From the NCBI GenBank assembly GCA_016784125.1, contig JADHVI010000002.1:35653-99652 (forward strand): 64,000 nucleotides of DNA. Direction: 5' to 3'. A model generated the notes under the pieces. That model saw only the letters and a program-made list of their open reading frames with translations, was not told the origin of the DNA and searched no databases. Both the position numbers and the translations under genes were made by a program. Source of the stretch: Candidatus Woesearchaeota archaeon. Its GTDB lineage: Archaea > Nanobdellota > Nanobdellia > Woesearchaeales > GCA-2686295. Below, piece after piece: positions 18,822 to 28,049 of this stretch (its first letter is position 1; each line of letters opens with the position of its first letter).

Positions 18822-19205
18822 ATGGTAACAAGAAATACATTTCAAAGACAAAAAATACTTGAATATCTTAGCAGTGTAAAAACTCATCCTACAGCAGAAA
18901 TGGTTTACAAAGAAGTCTTAAAAGACATTCCAACAATTACACTAGCAACTGTATACAGAAACCTAAACTTGTTAGCTAAACAAGGGGTAATACTCAGATT
19001 AGAAGTAAATAAAGAATATCACTATGATGGGTGTACTGAAGAACACCAACACGGTGTGTGTCAGAAATGCGGAAATATAATGGATTTTATGAACGAAGAA
19101 TTGTCACAATATGTCATAACACACTTGAAACAAAAAGATTTTAAACCTTCAACAGTCAACATAATCTTTCAAGGGACTTGCGAAAGTTGCAATGAGGTGC
19201 TTTAA
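18822..19205 (+). CDS. Fur-family metalloregulator (PerR/Fur-like)
   Basis: 127 aa with a winged-helix N-terminus (ATVYRNLNLLAKQG), an HHG-containing metal site (EEHQHGVCQKCG) and a second CxxC (CESC). Confidence 0.85.
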   Translation: MVTRNTFQRQKILEYLSSVKTHPTAEMVYKEVLKDIPTITLATVYRNLNLLAKQGVILRLEVNKEYHYDGCTEEHQHGVCQKCGNIMDFMNEELSQYVITHLKQKDFKPSTVNIIFQGTCESCNEVL

Positions 19206-19264
19206 TGGGATGTTGTAAAAAGAAAACAGACACTAAAACCAAGAAAAAGTCTTGTAAAGAATAA
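19205..19264 (+). CDS. candidate 19-aa Cys/Lys-rich micro-ORF (MGCCKKKTDTKTKKKSCKE)
   Basis: Its ATG overlaps the Fur stop codon (TAATG). It lies between the regulator and the peroxiredoxin gene. It is not in the ORF track because it is under 60 aa. Confidence 0.2.
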   Translation: MGCCKKKTDTKTKKKSCKE

Positions 19265-19329
19265 TGCTCAAATCTTTAAAAAAAAGTAATAGAACTAGCT
19301 CAAGCTATATTCTAAAGGAGGAAAACAAA

Positions 19330-19926
19330 ATGAAAAACGAAGAAAATTGTGATTGCTATGAAGTTGCAGACATAAATAAACCAGCGCCTGCATTCACAGC
19401 AGAAGCATTCCACAAAGAACAAATAAAAAAAATTAATTTAGAAGATTACAAAGGAAAATGGGTTGTACTATACTTCTACCCAGCAGACTTCACATTTATC
19501 TGCCCAACTGAATTAGGAGATATGGCAGATCACTACGAAGAATTAAAAAAGATGAATGTAGAAGTATTATCAGTATCAACCGATACAGTTTTTGTTCATA
19601 AAGCATGGCATGATGATTCAGAAACCATCAACAAAATCAAATTTCCAATGGTTGCAGACCCAACAGGATTTATCTGCAGAAGTTACGGAACAATGATTGA
19701 AGAAGAAGGATTATCTTTAAGAGGAACATTCATTATCAATCCTGAAGGAGTATTGAAAGCATTCGAAATACACGATAATTCAATCGGAAGATCAGCAAAG
19801 GAATTAATAAGAAAAATACAAGCAGCTCAATACGTCGAAACTCATGGCGGAGAAGTATGCCCTGCAAATTGGAAGCCAGGAGAAAAAACACTGAAACCAA
19901 GTCTCGAACTTGTTGGAAAAATATAG
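19330..19926 (+). CDS. ahpC: typical 2-Cys peroxiredoxin (AhpC/Prx1 type)
   Basis: FYPADFTFICPTE peroxidatic Cys motif and GEVCPANW resolving Cys motif. I chose the ATG at 19330 because AAGGAGG lies 8 nt upstream. Confidence 0.92.
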   Translation: MKNEENCDCYEVADINKPAPAFTAEAFHKEQIKKINLEDYKGKWVVLYFYPADFTFICPTELGDMADHYEELKKMNVEVLSVSTDTVFVHKAWHDDSETINKIKFPMVADPTGFICRSYGTMIEEEGLSLRGTFIINPEGVLKAFEIHDNSIGRSAKELIRKIQAAQYVETHGGEVCPANWKPGEKTLKPSLELVGKI

Positions 19927-20322
19927 GTGATACAAATGTTAGAACAAAATGAAATTTATAAATGTCCACTCTGTGGCAATGTAATTTCAGCACAAGAAGC
20001 TAATGGACCAATCCCAGTTTGTTGCGGACAAACCATGAAGAAGATGCCTGAAATAACAGTCAAAGAGGAAGGCACAGAAAAACACAAACCAGTTGTAAGC
20101 ATTAAAGGCGATAAAGTTATTGTCAATGTTGGCTCAATCGACCACCCAATGGACGAAGATCATTGGATTGAATTCATACAGATCTTAAAAGACGGTAAGG
20201 TTATTGCTGAGAAGAAGCTATATCCAGGTGATAAGCCTAGAGCAGAATTCTTAGTTGAAGATTCAAATAACATTAGATCAAGAGCATATTGCAACATGCA
20301 CGGTTTATGGACAAACGATTAA
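19927..20322 (+). CDS. dfx: desulfoferrodoxin (2Fe superoxide reductase)
   Basis: N-terminal desulforedoxin-type CPLCGN...CCG and a C-terminal SOR site (KHKPV...CNMHGLW). An alternative start is the ATG at 19936. Confidence 0.9.
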   Translation: MIQMLEQNEIYKCPLCGNVISAQEANGPIPVCCGQTMKKMPEITVKEEGTEKHKPVVSIKGDKVIVNVGSIDHPMDEDHWIEFIQILKDGKVIAEKKLYPGDKPRAEFLVEDSNNIRSRAYCNMHGLWTND

Positions 20323-20373
20323 TTTTTTATTTTATTTTAAAGATATTCTGGAGATAATAGAACAATTTCAGCA

Positions 20374-20730
20374 CTAAAAAGCACAATATTTACAATTAGT
20401 TTTCTTGCATGTTTCATTATTACCATGCCACTTCAAAGCCCAGATTTTCATGCTTTTTATAACACTAATAAAAGCTAATCCTTTATCTGTTAGAATGTAC
20501 TGACAAGTAATTGGAAATGCAGAAGTGTCTATATTCTTTTGAACAATATCTAGCTTCTCAAGTTCTTTTAGTCTTGAAGACAATAATTTTGGCGTAATAC
20601 CTGGAATTGAGCGTTTGAGTTCAGAGAATCTTTTGTTAGATGTTCCCTTATATAACTCTTGTAAAATCAACAAAGTCCATTTTTTCCCTATGAAATCAGC
20701 AACTTCATAGATAGTGCATTCTGGTTTCAT
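20374..20730 (-). CDS. HxlR-family winged-helix transcriptional regulator
   Basis: C-x-I-x-x-V-x-D-x-IGKKWTLLILQEL ... FSELKRSIPGITPKLLSSRLKELE is the canonical HxlR pattern. Confidence 0.85.
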   Translation of the reverse strand: MKPECTIYEVADFIGKKWTLLILQELYKGTSNKRFSELKRSIPGITPKLLSSRLKELEKLDIVQKNIDTSAFPITCQYILTDKGLAFISVIKSMKIWALKWHGNNETCKKTNCKYCAF

Positions 20731-20807: not shown

Positions 20808-21815
20808 TTAAGGCTTATTTTTCTTATGTCTCATCCATAAAAACATTCCCACTATTAAAATAAAAATCAAAAACAATATAATGCTCAAAAGATTCGCATA
20901 CTGCCAACCAATAAGTGCATTCTGAATTGAATAAAAGTATTGCTTTGTACCAAAGACATCCCATGAATTAAATACACTCGTACCCTTAAATATCAGAAGT
21001 ATAAAACCTATGAATAAGAACAAAATACCAGCTATAAAATTAGTTGAATGAATGTGATAAGTTTTATCATCTATCTTAAACTTAAACATTTTACCTTTAA
21101 TAAATCTGCTTTTAGACAAATCAAATTTATCATAAAGCATAGATAAGACAAATAAAGGCACAAGATTGCCAATAGAATAAAACAGCAGAAGCATAGCAGA
21201 ATAAAAAATATTATGAAGCAAAGCACCAATACCAAGAATTCCTGCAAGTATAGGACCTAAGCAAGCAGTCCAACCAATAGCAAAAAATACTCCGAATAAT
21301 AAAGTTCCAGGAATATCATTATTGAATTTTCTATTAGGCTTTATAAAAGAAGCAAAACCTTTGCCAGAGATTGAAACAAGACCCATCAGAATCAAAAAAA
21401 CTCCTGCAAGTGTTACTAACCAATTACTCTGTAATATTGAAAGTGATCGTTCACCAATAAAGCCCGCAATAATACCCATCACTACAAATACTGCTGCAAA
21501 GCCTACAAAAAATACGAGAGTCATCTTAGTGATATTCTTCTTCTCTTTGAATGTATAAGAGAAGTAAGCAGGTAAGAATGGTAAGATACAAGGAGATAAT
21601 ATACCTAAAATACCAGCAACAAAAGCTATGAAAAAAGAGATTTTGACAGAGAAGTCAAGGGTTTGTTGTTGATTTGATTCTATTATCTTCTGTAAACCAA
21701 TAGGTAATTCTGAAGAGTTATCTCCATCATGACTATGATTTTCATGTGCAGTTACAATCGAAGCAAAAGCTACTAAGAAAATCAATAATAACAAAACTGA
21801 AAATAATCTCTTCAT
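20808..21815 (-). CDS. ccdA: CcdA/DsbD-family transmembrane thiol:disulfide electron transporter with His-rich N-terminal segment and C-terminal TM extension
   Basis: A signal peptide is followed by AHENHSHDGDNSS. TM1 motif SPCILPFLPAYFSY and a second Cys helix (GWTACLGPILAG) are typical of CcdA. About 100 extra hydrophobic residues follow at the C-terminus. Confidence 0.8.
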   Translation of the reverse strand: MKRLFSVLLLLIFLVAFASIVTAHENHSHDGDNSSELPIGLQKIIESNQQQTLDFSVKISFFIAFVAGILGILSPCILPFLPAYFSYTFKEKKNITKMTLVFFVGFAAVFVVMGIIAGFIGERSLSILQSNWLVTLAGVFLILMGLVSISGKGFASFIKPNRKFNNDIPGTLLFGVFFAIGWTACLGPILAGILGIGALLHNIFYSAMLLLFYSIGNLVPLFVLSMLYDKFDLSKSRFIKGKMFKFKIDDKTYHIHSTNFIAGILFLFIGFILLIFKGTSVFNSWDVFGTKQYFYSIQNALIGWQYANLLSIILFLIFILIVGMFLWMRHKKNKP

Positions 21816-21820
21816 CTTAT

Positions 21821-22261
21821 TTACTCAACTATTAATTGTCCTCTCATACTACCATGACCAGCTCCACAAGGAACATTACAAAAAAATGTAAATGTTCCAG
21901 TTTTATCGGCTATAAAGTTTACATTCACTTCTTGTCCTGGTTCTAACATTTCATTCACACCGAATTGTGAAAGCATAAAGCCATGAGTTACATCGACACT
22001 CTTTATGTGTAATTCCACGTTATCACCAAGATTCACTCTAATCTCAGAAGGTTCAAAGTTCCAATTTCTGGCAATGAGATCAAATTCTCTCACTTCACCT
22101 GAGAACTTGTCATCTCCATTAGCAACATCAGTTGCTTGAGAGTCAATTGTTTGTTGATTACAAGCAACTAGCAATAATAGACTGGCAAGTAATAATATTA
22201 ATTTTTTGTTTTGCAATTTTGTCACCTCATTAAAAAAAATAAAAAAATTATGGTTGAACAA
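21821..22261 (-). CDS. stand-alone cupredoxin lipoprotein with CuA-type metal site
   Basis: Lipobox LLLVAC. The spacing H-x34-C-x3-C-x3-H-x2-M (THGF...FFCNVPCGAGHGSM), counted by hand, matches the binuclear CuA consensus. Confidence 0.75.
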   Translation of the reverse strand: MFNHNFFIFFNEVTKLQNKKLILLLASLLLLVACNQQTIDSQATDVANGDDKFSGEVREFDLIARNWNFEPSEIRVNLGDNVELHIKSVDVTHGFMLSQFGVNEMLEPGQEVNVNFIADKTGTFTFFCNVPCGAGHGSMRGQLIVE

Positions 22262-23399
22262 TTTCTCCTGTCGTCAAGTCCTTATATGGTTGTCTAGAAA
22301 CGTCCACTAACCTAAATACATAAGTACCATCAGTTTCTACTGTGCCAACATCCTTCCACGCGCTAACAATAACAGAATAAGCACCAACATCACCTTCCAA
22401 TATAATCGTAGGAACTTTTACAATGTTATATTTTTCAATTAATGCTTGACCTTCTGAAGTAGAAATATCAACTGATTTTTCCTCTCCGAAAACAGCACCC
22501 ATATTTACCAAAATTGGTTTATGAAAACTATTTGGATCATAACATTCAGTACATGTTTCATCTGTTATGACAGTCATTGAAAGCAAACCAACAACTCTAT
22601 TCTCGGTTAAATCAACATAAGGAGGAGTTAATAATCTAGTCACATAATAACCGTTTGATTCCACACTTCCCAGTTGATTCCAACTACCAGTAATACCTGA
22701 ACCATAAATTTCCAAATCACTTGACAATATTAAAGTTGGAATTGTTTGTATGTTATATTGAGATATTAACACTTGACCTTCAACACTGTTCATTTCAATC
22801 GTACGCTCATCAGTAATAACTACTCCAGATTGTTTCACACTATTTAACAAAACATCCAAATTATAACAATTGTCGCACGAAGAATCTTGAACTAATATTG
22901 TTAATACTCTTCCTTGTAATTCGCCAGAAACTGCATCAGTATATGGCGGTATGAGCGATCTAAAGACTAAAGCATCATCCTGAAGTTCCATATTTCTAAT
23001 AGAAGTCTTGTTAATTTGACCAAACAATAATACACTTGGAATCTTTTCTATTCCATATTCAGAAATCAGTTCTTTTGCTTCTTCTGAATCAAAGTTTAAA
23101 GATTGTTCTTGTGTTATATTTACGTGAGACTTCTTGATAGTATCAATAATTGGTTGAATATCAAAACAATCATTGCAACTATAATCCGTTATAGTTATCA
23201 TTTGTAGCTCAGCAGGTTTGGTTGCTTCTTTTACCACTGCAAGTCTCTCATCAAGCAAACTATCAAAAGAAGATGTTTGCACAATATTAAATATGGCTAC
23301 CAGTATCAAAACGATTCCCAATACTAAATAGTAATTTTTATGAGAGTTGACTTGTTTGCTGGTTTTTTTAGCGTTTTTCTTATTTTCCATTAACATCAC
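22248..23399 (-). CDS. membrane-anchored protein with three tandem thioredoxin-like CxxC repeats
   Basis: A basic N-tail and one TM are followed by three repeats of about 100 aa. Each repeat has ITD-x-x-CxxC(F/Y) (CNDC, CDNC, CTEC) and a downstream (I/V)P(S/T)(V/L/I)(L/I)L cis-Pro-like element. Confidence 0.7.
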   Translation of the reverse strand: MMLMENKKNAKKTSKQVNSHKNYYLVLGIVLILVAIFNIVQTSSFDSLLDERLAVVKEATKPAELQMITITDYSCNDCFDIQPIIDTIKKSHVNITQEQSLNFDSEEAKELISEYGIEKIPSVLLFGQINKTSIRNMELQDDALVFRSLIPPYTDAVSGELQGRVLTILVQDSSCDNCYNLDVLLNSVKQSGVVITDERTIEMNSVEGQVLISQYNIQTIPTLILSSDLEIYGSGITGSWNQLGSVESNGYYVTRLLTPPYVDLTENRVVGLLSMTVITDETCTECYDPNSFHKPILVNMGAVFGEEKSVDISTSEGQALIEKYNIVKVPTIILEGDVGAYSVIVSAWKDVGTVETDGTYVFRLVDVSRQPYKDLTTGEIVQP

Positions 23400-23422
23400 C
23401 TGGTTTAGTTAAAAAAATTATT

Positions 23423-23647
23423 TTAACAACCGCCCACCATTGTTGGTAGATTTTGTATGCTTGTTGGCAAAGCTGCGGGTTGACTACCGCTGCCTCCTGA
23501 TGATAACGGCGTTGTGCTAGTTGAAGAGCCAATTGATAGATCTTCATTAGCGATTTCTGATTTTAAATTGTTTAATTGAACTGCTTGAACGATTGACAGC
23601 ACCACAAGTACTACCATCACCACAGTTACTATTGTTGTTGATTTCAT
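23423..23647 (-). CDS. small membrane-anchored protein ending in NLPTMVGGC-COOH
   Basis: 74 aa with a GAGGTG SD 7 nt upstream. It has an N-terminal TM, a Ser/Thr/Gly linker, and a C-terminal tail shared with the 258-aa protein. Confidence 0.6.
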   Translation of the reverse strand: MKSTTIVTVVMVVLVVLSIVQAVQLNNLKSEIANEDLSIGSSTSTTPLSSGGSGSQPAALPTSIQNLPTMVGGC

Positions 23648-23661
23648 TTTTTTACACCTCG

Positions 23662-24105
23662 TTAGTATTCACATCCTGTAAGCTCAGCCAATCTTTCAAA
23701 AGATTGAACACGCTCATATTCCTGACCATCTATTACCCATGTTGGTCTTAGATTAAGGTCTTCTTCAATTTCATAATTAATATATTTGAATGATTTACCA
23801 AACATCTGTTTTTGACCATTCGTATATTGACACCAATCTTCACCATACATCACAGCGCCCTTCTCTGTTAAACATTTAGCAAAGTTATCCCAGTTACCAG
23901 GTTTTTGGCTTGAATAAACACCGAATATTACTAATAAAATAACTATTGCCAAAGAAACAAAACCAATTGTTTTATTTCTTCTACTTCTGGAAACTTTGTT
24001 AGTTTTGAAAAGTTTATCTCGCTGTTTCCTATTAGATTCCACCTGTTCACTGGCAGCCTTCTGATTCTCTAATCGACGTTTTCTTCTCTCATTTTTTGAC
24101 ACCAT
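23662..24105 (-). CDS. membrane-anchored thioredoxin-like protein with a single active-site Cys (VKOR-associated Trx-domain type)
   Basis: GAVMYGEDWCQYTNGQKQMFG ... RPTWVIDGQEY ... LAELTGC resembles the Trx-like domain fused to VKOR homologues (YGA-WC-x-HC-x-x-QK), but CxxC is reduced to C-Q-Y-T. Confidence 0.6.
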   Translation of the reverse strand: MVSKNERRKRRLENQKAASEQVESNRKQRDKLFKTNKVSRSRRNKTIGFVSLAIVILLVIFGVYSSQKPGNWDNFAKCLTEKGAVMYGEDWCQYTNGQKQMFGKSFKYINYEIEEDLNLRPTWVIDGQEYERVQSFERLAELTGCEY

Positions 24106-24125
24106 TTTTTATGCGTTTTATGCGT

Positions 24126-24299
24126 TTATCCGCAGCCCCCTCCGACGTAATCTGAACTTGGCGGTGGTATAGTGTTTGGGTCTCCCGAAGAACATCCCAC
24201 TACTACTAAGGCTAAGATTACTAACAAAGCCACTACAAATAACATTTTGTTTCTTGCGTATAACAATTTCAAAGAATTGTATATTACACCTATATTCAT
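24126..24299 (-). CDS. small anchored/lipoprotein-like protein ending in YVGGGCG-COOH (not in ORF track)
   Basis: 57 aa: MNIGVIYNSLKLLYARNKMLFVVALLVILALVVVGCSSGDPNTIPPPSSDYVGGGCG. Its ATG is 1 nt after the upstream stop, with GGAGG 8 nt upstream. An alternative start at 24245 gives a 39-aa lipobox (VVGC) form. Confidence 0.45.
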   Translation of the reverse strand: MNIGVIYNSLKLLYARNKMLFVVALLVILALVVVGCSSGDPNTIPPPSSDYVGGGCG

Positions 24300-24300
24300 T

Positions 24301-25077
24301 TTAACAACCTCCTACCATTCCTGGTAAATTATCCAAAGCAGATGTATCTCCACCCGCAACAGTCATTCCTAACTCAATCATGTTCTTTGGAAAGAATAGT
24401 GTCTTCCACTTTATTACTTCTCGCAATATTTCTCCATCATTGTAATCAGTGTAAGCTGTTAAGTAAAGAGTCACTGATAGAAGAGCAGGGTTATGTTGAC
24501 AACCACATTTAGAGTTGCCGTTCTTGTCAGCGCCTGCAGGGCCAATTCCACAACAATATTCACATGAAACTCCATATGGATTTGAAGCGAGATTTATGTA
24601 TCTCTGGAATGCTTCTGGATTACTTTGTTTTACTTCTGATTTCAATCCTTCAAACATCCTTGCCAGAGTTGCTAATGAAGTAACTGGATCATCAAAGTTT
24701 ACTCCTAACGCATCTCCATACTCAGGTGTTCCTGTTGGAAATAAAATAGCCATTGCATCTTCTGCAGTGTATATATTCTCTACAGGAAAAACTGCCGCAA
24801 TAGCATGACCTGTTGATGTTATCTTTGATAAGTCAAGATCTAAAAGATCAGTTCCGCCAGCATTAATTGATCTTGCACTAACAGAATTTAAATCACCAGA
24901 GATACTGTTTATTTGTGTTTGATTAAAAATCATTACTACAAGTACTAAGACAAACAAACCAATGATTGGCATTGTAAGTGCGTTCTCTGTCTTTTTCGTT
25001 TTGGCTTTTGTTGTTTTAGTTGTCGTTTTAGCTTTAGTTTTCGTTTCCGCTTTTATTTTTGTTTTTCCTTTTTCCAT
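24301..25077 (-). CDS. membrane-anchored Cys-rich protein ending in NLPGMVGGC-COOH
   Basis: 258 aa with a Lys/Thr-rich cytoplasmic tail, one TM, the Cys cluster SCEYCCGIGPAGADKNGNSKCGCQHNP, and the same C-terminal tail as the 74-aa protein. Confidence 0.65.
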   Translation of the reverse strand: MEKGKTKIKAETKTKAKTTTKTTKAKTKKTENALTMPIIGLFVLVLVVMIFNQTQINSISGDLNSVSARSINAGGTDLLDLDLSKITSTGHAIAAVFPVENIYTAEDAMAILFPTGTPEYGDALGVNFDDPVTSLATLARMFEGLKSEVKQSNPEAFQRYINLASNPYGVSCEYCCGIGPAGADKNGNSKCGCQHNPALLSVTLYLTAYTDYNDGEILREVIKWKTLFFPKNMIELGMTVAGGDTSALDNLPGMVGGC

Positions 25078-25196: not shown

Positions 25197-26963
25197 TTGG
25201 AACTTCAGGGGGAAAAAATAGTGAAAATTAATCGACCATTTGTAATCCTATTAATATCATTAATAATGTTAGTTATAATAGGCGTAGTTGTATTTACTAA
25301 TGTTCTCTCATTCAGAAATATAGAATCAGTTCTAATAAATCAGTTAAAAGAAAATCAGTTGACTCAAACAGAGTTTGCAGCTTCTCAAATAGAAGATTAT
25401 GTACTCCAAGTAAAAAACGAGTTGATAACACTAAGCAAGTTTCCAGACATAGATTCCTTCAATATGAATGAATGCAATGGCGATATGTCCATAGTTCATG
25501 GGGATATAGAAGGAAAAATAAATAATCTATTAAGAGTTGAAAAAGATGGAACCGTAATTGAATGTTCATCACCAATTTATTCTAATTTTGTCGGTTTGAA
25601 CATACAAAATAAGGATTATTTTCGGATCCCTAAAGAAACAAATGAGCCGTTCATAGATAGTTCTATTAGACAAGGAAACATGAGACAGATAATCATCGCA
25701 GCACCTCTTTTTGAAACAACAGAGTATACTCCTTATCCAAATTTTCTTGGTCGGTTTGAAGGTTTACTGTTGAGTATCATCGAAGTTAATACACTTTACA
25801 ATATGTACATACACCCAATAGCAGATCCTGAAAAAAGCTCTTTCTTATTAATCAGTTTGGAGACTGGCGAGACTATTCTTAAAAGTAATAATATGGCAGA
25901 ATACTCTGAGATCAAGAATGATATTCCAATAAAAAGCAGACAGTTGAGTGCAATCAGTAATTTTAATGGTTTCGGAGAAACAATCTTTACTTCATCAGAT
26001 ATGATTCTAGGCTCTGAAACTTGGAGATTAATTGTTTTAACACCTCTGGAAAATATAGAGGAAAATGTGGGGAGTGTTCAAAAAAGACATTTTTTCATTC
26101 TAGGATTTGTAATAGTTGTAATCATTGCATTGTTCTTTTTTATGATAACACTTTACAAGTCAAAAGAAAAAGTACAACTAAAATTAGATAGAGCCAATGT
26201 AACCTTAGAACAGTTAGGCATCAATATTGAAACTGAAACAGACAAATACAATCAAGCAGATATAACTCTTGAACCAAAAAAAATATACTTAATAAAAGAA
26301 GACGACGAAAATCATGCACATGAATTGTTTATAGATTCTCTTAATAAGGGATTTGCAGGTCTTGGAATTGTAAGAGAAAATCCACGCGAGCTTAGAAAAA
26401 AGTACAATTTACAAAAAACTTCTTTCATATGGATGACAGATACTAAAACTGTAGATATTCCTACAGAAATGAAGATAGATAACTTGTACAGGTTAATCTC
26501 AGAGTTTGTCAAGAAGAGCAAAAAGTGTGTCATTCTAATAGATAGACTTGATTATATTTTATCCGAGAACAGCTTCGAAGATGTCATAAAGAGAATTCAT
26601 TCTTTGAAAGATTTGGCATTATCAAATAATTGCATAATAATAATCTCTGTTAATCCAGAACTGGTTCCTGATGTTCAGCTTAAAGCAGTAGAAACTGAGA
26701 CAATCGATTTGTATGGAAAACATCTAAGTGATAAAGTGAATCTTTCTGAGATGGAGTTTGAAATGCTAAAACTTGTGAATGAATATAATACTACAAATAA
26801 GCTAATATCTTACAAAGACATTACAAGTAAATTCAATATTACAAAGCCAACAACAAGAGCAAAGATTAACAACTTGCAAAATCTTAGTTTAATACAAGTA
26901 GAACAGAGAGGAAGGTTTAAATCTCTTAAAATCACGTCGACAGGAAGAAGAATTATAGGTTAA
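25197..26963 (+). CDS. membrane-bound one-component sensor/regulator: extracytoplasmic sensor domain - TM - DUF835 - winged helix
   Basis: Two TM segments flank an external domain of about 260 aa. The DUF835-like core is GLGIVRENPRELRKKY...FIWMTD...CVILIDRLDYIL. A C-terminal wHTH follows (ISYKDITSKFNITKPTTRAKINNLQNLSLI). An alternative start is the GTG at 25221, 8 nt after GGGGG. Confidence 0.7.
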   Translation: MELQGEKIVKINRPFVILLISLIMLVIIGVVVFTNVLSFRNIESVLINQLKENQLTQTEFAASQIEDYVLQVKNELITLSKFPDIDSFNMNECNGDMSIVHGDIEGKINNLLRVEKDGTVIECSSPIYSNFVGLNIQNKDYFRIPKETNEPFIDSSIRQGNMRQIIIAAPLFETTEYTPYPNFLGRFEGLLLSIIEVNTLYNMYIHPIADPEKSSFLLISLETGETILKSNNMAEYSEIKNDIPIKSRQLSAISNFNGFGETIFTSSDMILGSETWRLIVLTPLENIEENVGSVQKRHFFILGFVIVVIIALFFFMITLYKSKEKVQLKLDRANVTLEQLGINIETETDKYNQADITLEPKKIYLIKEDDENHAHELFIDSLNKGFAGLGIVRENPRELRKKYNLQKTSFIWMTDTKTVDIPTEMKIDNLYRLISEFVKKSKKCVILIDRLDYILSENSFEDVIKRIHSLKDLALSNNCIIIISVNPELVPDVQLKAVETETIDLYGKHLSDKVNLSEMEFEMLKLVNEYNTTNKLISYKDITSKFNITKPTTRAKINNLQNLSLIQVEQRGRFKSLKITSTGRRIIG

Positions 26964-27626: not shown

Positions 27627-28049
27627 ATGTTTAACAATGTAAAAGAACGGATTATAGGAACAACAGGGAGTATTTCCGGATTTGCAAGTGTACTTGGTTC
27701 TTGGCAAATATGTCACAATGTTTGTCTGGGATTAATAGCTTTGTTAAGTGTTATAGGAATAACTGTGACAGGTATGCCTCTAATGTTTCTGACAAAGCTA
27801 GCAATTCCTCTTTGGACAGCGGCAGTTATACTATTAGGAATAACTACTTGGTTTTTCGTTAAGAAGAAGTGTATTTCTGGAAAACTCATAATGATAAACT
27901 CTGGCTTGATAATTGCAGGCATTCCTTTTCAAGCACTTCAAAGATTCTCAATAATTTTCTGGATTGTTGGTGGAATCATAGCTGCAACAGGAATTGGTTT
28001 TTTTATCAAGGATAAGATTCAAAAACAAAAGATGAAGGTGAAAAAATGA
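27627..28049 (+). CDS. four-TM membrane protein with intramembrane CxxxC (CHNVC)
   Basis: 140 aa, hydrophobic, with the Cys pair at the start of TM1. It overlaps the next gene by 4 nt. Confidence 0.6.
   Translation: MFNNVKERIIGTTGSISGFASVLGSWQICHNVCLGLIALLSVIGITVTGMPLMFLTKLAIPLWTAAVILLGITTWFFVKKKCISGKLIMINSGLIIAGIPFQALQRFSIIFWIVGGIIAATGIGFFIKDKIQKQKMKVKK

Follow-up and report, generated by a model that had tools for sequence, protein, structure and literature searches.

What does a cysteine do when it is the last residue of a membrane-anchored protein? The question was raised by a 64,000-nucleotide stretch of contig JADHVI010000002.1 from a Candidatus Woesearchaeota archaeon (assembly GCA_016784125.1; this whole stretch is called the window), where two nearby anchored proteins of 258 and 74 residues both stop directly after the sequence LPxMVGGC. 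The tail proved genuine: it is conserved in archaea as well as bacteria, has no annotation, and indicates a new surface system of several components in DPANN archaea and bacteria of the Candidate Phyla Radiation (CPR). We tentatively favour the reading that LPx[M/Q]VGGC-COOH forms the functional tip of a terminal-thiol arm tethered to the membrane, which would serve a core domain with five cysteines and one histidine (Cys5His) in a relay fed by CcdA and thioredoxin. The system as a whole is widespread, uncharacterised and unannotated, was found in DPANN and CPR only, and would lie outside the membrane.

A preliminary description of the window had placed one shared tail on three adjacent proteins and had pointed to the end of a fourth. 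All four quoted endings were confirmed on the minus strand (...LDNLPGMVGGC, ...IQNLPTMVGGC, ...DYVGGGCG, and ...APSAGGSC, each followed by a stop). The 258- and 74-residue proteins were the only two open reading frames (ORFs) of at least 40 residues in the window that terminated with MVGGC. The 258-residue protein had 955 database homologues, all unnamed and all devoid of Pfam domains, and the tail [LI]P[GSQ]MVGGC stood at the end of 120/120 homologues among the matches listed (55–98% identity). One genome per prokaryotic species was scanned with the back-translated pattern L-P-x-M-V-G-G-C-stop, which gave at least 119 loci, and 8-kb blocks around the matches were analysed. About 109 of these loci belonged to DPANN or CPR organisms and carried real ORFs. 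The DPANN loci came from Woese-, Nano-, Aenigm-, and Micrarchaeota together with some evidently mislabelled metagenome-assembled genomes (MAGs), and the CPR loci from Magasanik-, Uhr-, and Paceibacteria. The remaining matches, about 10 in other bacteria, lay in ORFs of 14 residues or fewer or in frames without a stop. Chance or composition as the origin of the tail was ruled out by the listed homologues, the ORF ends in the window, and the genome scan.

The tail ORFs at these loci numbered 169 and were all members of two families, a large superfamily represented by the 258-residue protein and a small family represented by the 74-residue protein, mostly encoded as adjacent pairs. The idea that the tail is spread over assorted anchored proteins was therefore narrowed to one two-gene system, and a general sorting signal on diverse cargo was ruled out for the sampled loci (169/169). 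All three stop codons followed the Cys directly (TAA 96, TGA 43, and TAG 30), so that neither recoding nor a hidden TM (transmembrane) segment lies behind it. All synonymous codons occurred at the L, P, V, G, G, and C positions of the 169 tails, which indicates selection on the peptide rather than on an embedded ribosome-binding site. Such a site does exist in the window, as the preliminary description had pointed out: the V-G-G codons of the 258-residue gene contain GGAGG, 8 nucleotides upstream of the ATG of the adjoining 57-residue ORF. Retention of the tail merely as ribosome-binding DNA was ruled out because the synonymous codons were all used and the tail was kept where no gene closely follows.

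The two short ORFs were compared with those of a close relative (locus L240), where both are called as genes. The 57-residue ORF differed by 6 synonymous and 0 non-synonymous codons, and the 74-residue ORF by 5 synonymous and 1 non-synonymous, so both are under purifying selection. The conservation of the tail in orthologues, the selection on the small ORFs, and the link to CcdA, thioredoxin, and cupredoxin genes nearby, all of which the preliminary description had proposed as checks, were borne out. Full-text literature searches returned nothing relevant on MVGGC, on disulfide or copper chemistry in DPANN together with Patescibacteria, or on a C-terminal cysteine in Woesearchaeota. Many MAGs titled "uncultured Methanosarcinales archaeon" (L004, L009, L015, L024, L026, L030, L035, L039, and others) carried typical DPANN-type cassettes and neighbours, as did one titled "Candidatus Binatia bacterium" (L040); the public taxonomic labels or bins of these MAGs look wrong.

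The large superfamily comprised proteins of 150–460 residues. In these, a TM helix that ends in F-N-Q-x-Q-I comes after a basic N-terminus, together with a conserved P-x-G-x-P-x-x-Y-G...G-V-S-F-D-D-P region, a C-x-x-C-C...C-G-C-x-H cluster, a W-K-x-x-F-P segment, a linker of highly variable length, and the tail. Residues G116, P118, Y120, C172, C175, C176, C191, G192, C193, H195, E220, W224, and P230 were invariant in 24 members that were 25–48% identical to the window protein. An exhaustive profile search collected 278 clusters (50% identity), and the core was present in 132 of the best 150, which served as an unbiased sample of the superfamily. Among these 132 core-containing representatives, the tail was MVGGC in 78, [Q/I]VGGC in 23, and another form with a terminal Cys in 21 (MVGSC, MRGGC, MAGGC, QIGGCG, and others), while 10 ended without a terminal Cys. 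The terminal Cys (122/132) is thus the most constant feature; xVGGC was kept in 101/132, and the Met at position −5 was often replaced by Gln. The flexible linker that had been described before the tail was seen across the families, with varying length.

The model of the large protein by AlphaFold2 with homologue alignments contained a confident all-helical core, with a predicted local distance difference test (pLDDT) score of 81 for the full-length chain and 88.4 for the domain alone (predicted template modelling score 0.87). The model had a Cys-rich loop, and the tail was less ordered (pLDDT 60–67, against at least 90 in the core). Foldseek searches of the PDB with the full-length and domain-only models gave no match (best E-values of 1.1 and 2.8; TM-scores mostly below 0.2, with a maximum of 0.31), and a profile search of PDB sequences found nothing. 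No model in Pfam-A 2025 or NCBIfam 20.0 covered the large protein, the small protein, the 57-residue lipoprotein with its GGGCG motif, or the four-TM module with a CxxC motif described below, in either the archaeal or the CPR versions; the large and small proteins had no NCBIfam match at E ≤ 0.1, and the 57-residue ORF had lipoprotein-signal-like matches only. The large and small proteins are predicted to have the N-terminus inside and the C-terminus outside. Four features suggest this topology: the window protein starts with a strongly basic stretch, fusions with the four-TM module have a basic loop ahead of the last TM helix, the families show a modest positive-inside bias, and all partners are of an exported kind.

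The small family consisted of proteins of 64–150 residues with a TM helix ending in V-Q-A-x-Q-L, a linker rich in Ser, Gly, and Ala, and the end (L/V)PS(N/S)(L/I)Q(N/D)LPxMVGGC. A database search with the 74-residue protein returned 4 matches only, the word index being weak on low complexity, and the family was collected by DNA pattern scans rather than by protein database search. The genome loci contained 100 members, and the terminal Cys was the only Cys in 88 of them. The usual gene order was large then small, adjacent to each other. One database protein of 335 residues (P0026) was a fusion of both, in which an internal LPGIVGGC was followed by EGGKK, the TM helix and linker of the small protein, and NLPQMVGGC; it is either a natural fusion by a lost stop codon or an artefact of assembly or gene calling.

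About 28 members of the large superfamily at the loci had no tail. They included forms of 400–450 residues with an N-terminal four-TM module, and CPR forms ending in the His/Met-rich sequence GHKTHGGAGxDGMHG. Wherever the surroundings were visible, a tailed small protein adjoined the tail-less large one. Such a pair was present at 12 unique loci, which implies that the arm can act in trans with the core. The four-TM module itself carried G-C-[PA]-x-C-G within a TM helix and occurred at about 20 loci, either at the N-terminus of mostly tail-less large proteins or as a separate protein nearby (for example L106:4501-5718, L011:6006-7316, L018:491-991, and L006:1508-1993); the fusion in L017 kept the tail. 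Its layout, four TM helices with CxxC followed by a fifth TM helix and an exported redox domain, was reminiscent of VKOR–thioredoxin fusions.

The same observations bear on a structural explanation, in which a permanent disulfide between the terminal Cys and either the odd fifth core Cys or the other tail would staple the large protein to the small one in a membrane complex, and no relay chemistry would take place. With five invariant cysteines the core is one short of three pairs, and the tail could provide the missing Cys. Tail-less large proteins come with a tailed small partner, as the staple would require, and the polar motif at the TM exit that is common to both proteins (Q-x-x-Q or N-Q-x-Q) could pair their helices. 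However, the small protein is also kept beside large proteins that have their own tail (88 pairs), which leaves one Cys too many, and seven further conserved, co-evolving tail residues exceed what a staple needs. The association with the reducing CcdA pathway also argues for thiols that are reduced or cycled. A permanent staple is accordingly considered unlikely.

The co-evolution of the two tails was most evident at position −5. Metagenomes were scanned for the Gln variant LPxQVGGC-stop, and blocks around the matches were added; the resulting counts are lower bounds. In unique adjacent pairs, the large and small proteins had M/M in at least 67, Q/Q in at least 21, Q/M in 1, and M/Q in 0, that is, 88 concordant pairs and 1 discordant. 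On a neighbour-joining tree of the cores, about 7 changes between Met and Gln were placed in each gene, with 70/71 pairs concordant (phylogenetically uncorrected counts on an approximate tree). Paired tails shared 2.8/6 codons compared with 1.9 for shuffled pairs, and a change from ATG to CAR takes two substitutions. Recent gene conversion as the source of the matched tails was rejected, since the small excess of shared codons fits a shared codon bias better. Repeated and matched switching with largely unshared codons implies that both tails are read by a common partner. The Met itself had been proposed earlier as a Cu(I) ligand, which is now unlikely given the Gln subgroup (23/132 representatives with [Q/I]VGGC) and the joint switching of both genes.

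A common partner could also be an enzyme, and a C-terminal processing or anchoring signal has to be weighed at this point. A dedicated enzyme would lipidate, cleave, or transpeptidate LPxMVGGC and so attach the protein to lipid, wall, or host. Besides the matched tails, which would fit one recognising enzyme, this explanation can draw on the L-P-x start, as in LPXTG, on VGGC as a fit to a permissive lipobox in an organism that uses lipoboxes, and on peptidases of the M48/M56 type at 20 loci. Neither a TM segment nor a basic tail follows the Cys, however, and instead of diverse cargo only the two families of a single system bear the motif. No conserved transpeptidase or lipid transferase was found nearby, the M56 genes pair with BlaI-type repressors in the manner of a sensor and regulator, and a second anchor on what would be a mere linker protein has no obvious use. 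The earlier suggestion of a modification or attachment site is hence unsupported, with no conserved candidate for a modifying enzyme among the neighbours in the sampled loci, and this explanation is regarded as improbable.

The conserved neighbours were counted in the 8-kb blocks, and CPR and DPANN shared the same ones. TM-anchored thioredoxin-fold proteins with CxxC were the most frequent (78/119 loci), followed by CcdA (46/119) and by His-rich extracytoplasmic proteins (39/119), some of which were fused to a four-TM protein with the motif SWQICHNxC. Three CxxC motifs were present in 58/59 of the multi-thioredoxin members of at least 300 residues, usually with an acidic residue inside the CxxC. 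At 25/119 loci there was a thioredoxin that we take to be of the VKOR-fused type; it was mostly monothiol, and some members kept WC[PS]HC. M56/M48 peptidases and BlaI-type repressors were each found at 20/119 loci, a DUF7343 regulator at 17/119, cupredoxins at 14/119, and CopA at 5/119.

At 20 loci, a BlaI-type repressor and an M56/M48 peptidase without a sensor lay directly beside the large gene (for example L006:5964-7384, L052:374-1805, and L035:5209-6338). The M56 proteins had Cys motifs in the stretch between their hydrophobic segments, CGCxNH in CPR, an echo of the CGCxH of the large protein. Together, the two proteins may act as a regulator pair that senses thiols or metals. Identity of the BlaI-like neighbours with the CopY-type copper repressor was ruled out, the C-terminal CxC...CxC motif not being present.

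In the window, whose G+C content is 33.7%, the cassette belonged to a tightly packed co-directional row of 7 genes on the minus strand, from the 258-residue protein to CcdA (20808..25077; Table 1). The window proteins matched those of DPANN archaea (Woesearchaeota, Nanoarchaeota, or MAGs titled "archaeon") with identities up to 100%. Stress genes flank the operon in two groups, so that it forms part of a stress island: Fur/PerR, peroxiredoxin, desulfoferrodoxin, and HxlR upstream (18822..20730), and on the other flank the dCache/DUF835 sensor, DUF302, a TRASH-like peptide, DUF411/CopG, a His/Met- and Cys-rich protein, rhodanese, and a CopA-type ATPase. The divergent dCache/DUF835 protein may control the operon in this lineage.

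Table 1. Coordinates of the cassette, its operon, and related features in the window.
Feature	Position	Strand	Description
CcdA/DsbD-type TM thiol-disulfide transporter	20808..21815	(-)	DsbD_TM 8.7e-14
Cupredoxin lipoprotein	21821..22261	(-)	complete CuA-type motif C-x3-C-x3-H-x2-M; best NCBIfam similarities to the C-terminal domains of NosZ and CoxB
TM-anchored protein, 383 residues	22248..23399	(-)	three thioredoxin-fold repeats (CNDC, CDNC, CTEC); most constant neighbour of the cassette
Small protein, 74 residues	23423..23647	(-)	TM helix ending VQAVQL; Ser/Gly/Thr linker; tail LPTMVGGC-COOH; terminal Cys is the sole Cys
Tail codons of the small protein	23426..23449	(-)	LPTMVGGC
Thioredoxin-like protein, 147 residues, TM-anchored	23662..24105	(-)	CxxC degenerated to CQYT; end ...TGCEY; presumably of the type fused to VKOR
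Small lipoprotein, 57 residues	24126..24299	(-)	lipobox LVVVGC|SSG (residues 31-36); end YVGGGCG; third family of the cassette
Large protein, 258 residues	24301..25077	(-)	basic N-terminus; TM helix ending FNQTQI; helical core; linker; tail LPGMVGGC-COOH
Tail codons of the large protein	24304..24327	(-)	LPGMVGGC; V-G-G codons contain GGAGG
dCache/DUF835/winged helix-turn-helix membrane sensor-regulator	25197..26963	(+)	divergent from the operon; kept beside the cassette in 6 loci
Peptide, 57 residues	27444..27617	(+)	TRASH/YHS-like CGM...C motif; end ...GSCCCH
Four-TM protein	27627..28049	(+)	motif SWQICHNVC; follows the TRASH-like peptide; homologues in 12 related loci
TM protein, 166 residues	29003..29503	(+)	His/Met-rich run (HHMSMDGHMSNHMDNDHMNMD), then Cys-rich domain KCCLETSCTYC...GECDC...PCGEC
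TM-anchored protein, 588 residues	43696..45462	(-)	two GILT/DsbA-like thioredoxin-fold domains; monothiol CPxG sites; linker; end ...AGGSC-COOH
DsbA-like protein, 308 residues	45487..46413	(-)	N-terminal membrane region; adjoins the GILT-like gene

The operons of the window and of L240 were about 97–98% identical apart from one indel. L240 carried a gene for a 65-residue zf-CDGSH protein (L240:8955-9152) between the three-thioredoxin gene and the cupredoxin gene, and these two genes overlap in the window at about 22248..22261, so the CDGSH gene is absent there. L240 also had an Fe-type superoxide dismutase gene after HxlR. The organism is an apparent anaerobe, as the window encodes a NiFe hydrogenase, Pta/Ack, and desulfoferrodoxin, and the cupredoxin gene had neither oxidase nor N2O reductase genes near it. 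The 166-residue protein, encoded between DUF411/CopG and rhodanese/CopA, gave no match in a Pfam search and is probably another uncharacterised copper protein. The homologues of the SWQICHNVC protein were fused at some loci to a His-rich extracytoplasmic domain (HWHPHL...HTH...IHLE), and neither the four-TM protein nor this domain had a Pfam family.

The metal genes of the window bring up the main rival of the thiol relay, a system for the capture and hand-off of soft metals, mainly Cu(I), which we consider possible but rather doubtful. The tethered thiolates would take Cu(I), Hg, or Ag at the surface and pass it to or from a Cys-bridged metal cluster on the Cys5His core, CcdA and thioredoxin would only keep the thiols reduced, and the purpose would be copper buffering or detoxification, or metallation of the CuA cupredoxin. 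The CxxCC and CGCxH motifs resemble the Cu-thiolate motifs of Cox17 (CCxC) and CopG (CxCC), which counts for copper. The window holds a metal island (the CuA-type cupredoxin, DUF302, the TRASH-like peptide, DUF411/CopG, the His/Met- and Cys-rich protein, rhodanese, and the CopA-type ATPase), some small proteins contain additional inserts of ETYEEMMARMHP or AEYEKMMDEMHP, and the tail-less CPR large proteins have the His/Met-rich ends given above. His-rich extracytoplasmic proteins are frequent neighbours, and MerT/HMA and CopA occur at a few loci. The Scs systems offer an analogy, as DsbD-like and thioredoxin-like proteins are tied there to copper tolerance (PMC10907172, PMC8900818). On the other hand, a large subgroup has Gln, which binds Cu(I) poorly, in place of Met, genes dedicated to copper make up a minority of the neighbours (CopA at 5 and cupredoxin at 14 of the 119 loci), and the BlaI-like repressors do not have the CxC motif of CopY. 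A single thiolate per arm would also be a weak site by itself.

The functional thiol arm is favoured on the basis of the supply of the tail in cis and in trans to a Cys5His domain, the co-evolving recognition residues, and the thioredoxin partners recharged by CcdA. The lone Cys of 88/100 small proteins, the GILT-like family with its monothiol sites and terminal Cys, and the place of the operon in a stress island also count in its favour. The centre of the proposed mechanism is the large protein, with a helical domain of putatively novel fold and the invariant Cys5His cluster (CxxCC...CGCxH). The arm would consist of the flexible linker, a docking peptide Φ-P-x-[M/Q]-V-G-G, and the terminal Cys, and would be supplied in cis by fusion to the large protein, in trans by the small protein (TM anchor, linker, and arm), or both. 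The tail may dock on the core, and the terminal thiol would shuttle to and from its Cys cluster. Its partners in the exchange of reducing equivalents, by way of mixed disulfides, would be the TM-anchored thioredoxin-fold proteins encoded alongside, and CcdA would recharge these from the cytoplasm; the direction of the relay and its cargo are likewise conjectural. The organisms that carry the system may lack an exported low-molecular-weight thiol.

Several points weigh against this mechanism. Docking of the tail was not confident in the AlphaFold2 model, and the positive-inside bias was modest in many family members. The core could bind metal instead of serving redox chemistry, and CcdA and thioredoxin neighbours are equally expected for copper handling. 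Covariation of core columns with the Met or Gln type of the tail placed 5 of the top 12 columns in the Cys loop; these columns are variable and phylogenetically confounded, so the covariation is suggestive only, a hint.

A more far-reaching form of the tethered-thiol idea was also considered. The preliminary description had proposed a protein-borne analogue of a low-molecular-weight thiol, which is compatible with the evidence and viable. In this form, DPANN and CPR organisms would possess a protein-borne thiol cofactor: the small protein would be a carrier with the terminal Cys as its sole functional group, serviced by the novel-fold Cys5His large protein, recharged by thioredoxin and CcdA, and standing in at the cell surface for exported low-molecular-weight thiols, in minimal cells that may produce no compound like glutathione. 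We regard this as conceivable, though somewhat unlikely.

The two other proteins of the preliminary description have to be set apart from the LPxMVGGC pair. Homologues of the 57-residue lipoprotein lay beside the cassette at 22/119 loci, with a lipobox L-[VIA]-G-C and a motif [YP][VI]GGGCG. The motif was terminal in the window protein and its closest relatives, and about 20 acidic residues extended beyond it in most other homologues. YVGGGCG is therefore best regarded as a related theme in a separate lipoprotein family, not as the LPxMVGGC tail; of the three adjacent tails first described, those of the 258- and 74-residue proteins stand.

The 588-residue protein belonged to a family in which a Cys was present within the last 4 residues of 119/120 homologues among the matches listed. 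A linker of Ala, Pro, Thr, and Ser was followed by G-[SNQAT]-C-COOH or GGCG-COOH, and AGGCGG was the end of CPR homologues whose genes are flanked by the large gene on one side and an M56 peptidase gene on the other. The fourth tail thus has a conserved terminal Cys, as a looser feature of GILT/DsbA-like proteins. Exported redox proteins in these organisms thus generally tend to carry a glycine-flanked Cys on a leash at the C-terminus, and LPxMVGGC is the specific, recognised version of this feature. The GGGCG lipoprotein and the GILT-like oxidoreductases with a terminal Cys may follow the same principle as the proposed arm, with the leashed thiol as a resolving or relay Cys. No DsbB or VKOR was seen in the examined parts of the window.

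CPR bacteria and DPANN archaea are ultra-small, host-dependent radiations with almost wholly unannotated cell surfaces. What is new here is a cross-domain surface system, composed of a core without a PDB fold match, a minimal partner, a small lipoprotein, and an optional four-TM CxxC module, tied to CcdA and thioredoxins and marked by the easily searched signature x-V-G-G-C-stop. If the tethered-thiol reading is true, these organisms would have a route for extracytoplasmic redox or copper chemistry without conventional thiol buffers or quinone-linked Dsb systems. If the small protein is a thiol carrier, it would define a new class of redox carrier and would mark the lifestyle of ultra-small episymbionts in both domains, whereas a modification signal would represent a new type of C-terminal protein-sorting chemistry. 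In either case, the four families merit curated models.

The tail was compared with known C-terminal signals. As the preliminary description had stated, it is not PGF-CTERM, PEF-CTERM, LPXTG, or a CaaX box: the stop follows the Cys directly, and no match was found in Pfam, NCBIfam, or the literature. It resembles the LPXTG sortase signal in being a short motif near the C-terminus of surface proteins, with an L-P-x start and a low-complexity linker before it. However, the motif here is [LA]P-x-[MQ]-V-G-G-C, and Thr-Gly stood at positions 4–5 in none of the 169 tails. In LPXTG, PGF-CTERM, and PEP-CTERM proteins, a hydrophobic segment or TM helix and an Arg/Lys tail come after the motif, where this chain ends. 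Sortase, archaeosortase, and exosortase signals are found on many cargo families per genome, whereas this tail was on one dedicated protein pair in the sampled loci. No sortase, archaeosortase, exosortase, or lipid transferase was among the conserved neighbours in the 8-kb loci.

V-G-G-C fits a permissive lipobox pattern, but a lipobox ([LVI][ASTVI][GAS]C) ends an N-terminal signal peptide and the mature protein follows its Cys, whereas the tail Cys is the last residue; the only true lipobox is that of the 57-residue neighbour. CaaX and Rab prenylation concern cytosolic eukaryotic proteins with a Cys four residues from the end or with CC or CXC, whereas the tail has a single terminal Cys on a C-terminus predicted to be extracytoplasmic. 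Ubiquitin-like sulfur carriers (ThiS, MoaD, SAMP, and QbsE with GG-CF) share Gly-Gly near the C-terminus followed by Cys. ThiS, MoaD, and SAMP have the β-grasp fold, whereas the large protein is predicted to be all-helical and the small protein is a TM helix with a linker; both are membrane-anchored, and no E1-like or JAMM genes lay nearby.

Closer likenesses were found among redox systems. The Scs and CcdA/DsbD–thioredoxin pathways (TlpA–Sco) also combine a DsbD/CcdA transporter with several anchored CxxC thioredoxin-fold proteins and have links to copper and peroxide stress; in Scs systems, copper tolerance involves DsbD-like and thioredoxin-like proteins, and ScsC is able to bind Cu(I) (PMC10907172, PMC8900818). 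The partner genes in the window (20808..23399) are likewise co-directional and tightly spaced with the cassette, thioredoxin-fold and CcdA genes recur at 78/119 and 46/119 loci, and a non-thioredoxin Cys protein is also present, here with a fold unmatched in the PDB. However, the large and small proteins are unrelated in sequence and fold to ScsA–D, Sco, and PCuAC, occur in DPANN and CPR only, and bear a tail that has no counterpart in those pathways.

C-terminal swinging arms are found in mammalian thioredoxin reductase (-GCUG), MerA (a C-terminal Cys pair), and Erv2p (a CGC tail). The likeness lies in a flexible C-terminal extension with a glycine-flanked reactive Cys that would move electrons or a soft metal from a buried centre to outside partners or back and is able to serve a neighbouring subunit, and the linkers that vary in length and composition and the tail pLDDT of 60–67 agree with such an extension. 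The three enzymes have flavin/NAD(P)H or Erv-type domains, and none was detected here by Pfam, NCBIfam, PDB sequence, or Foldseek searches, so the resemblance is one of function, not of membership. The arm described here also differs from theirs in its single Cys as the last residue, its membrane tether, its predicted extracytoplasmic location, its conserved putative docking peptide, and its occurrence as a separate protein. If that separate small protein is a carrier, its analogues would be the prosthetic arms of ACP and lipoyl proteins, with the difference that the arm here is genetically encoded.

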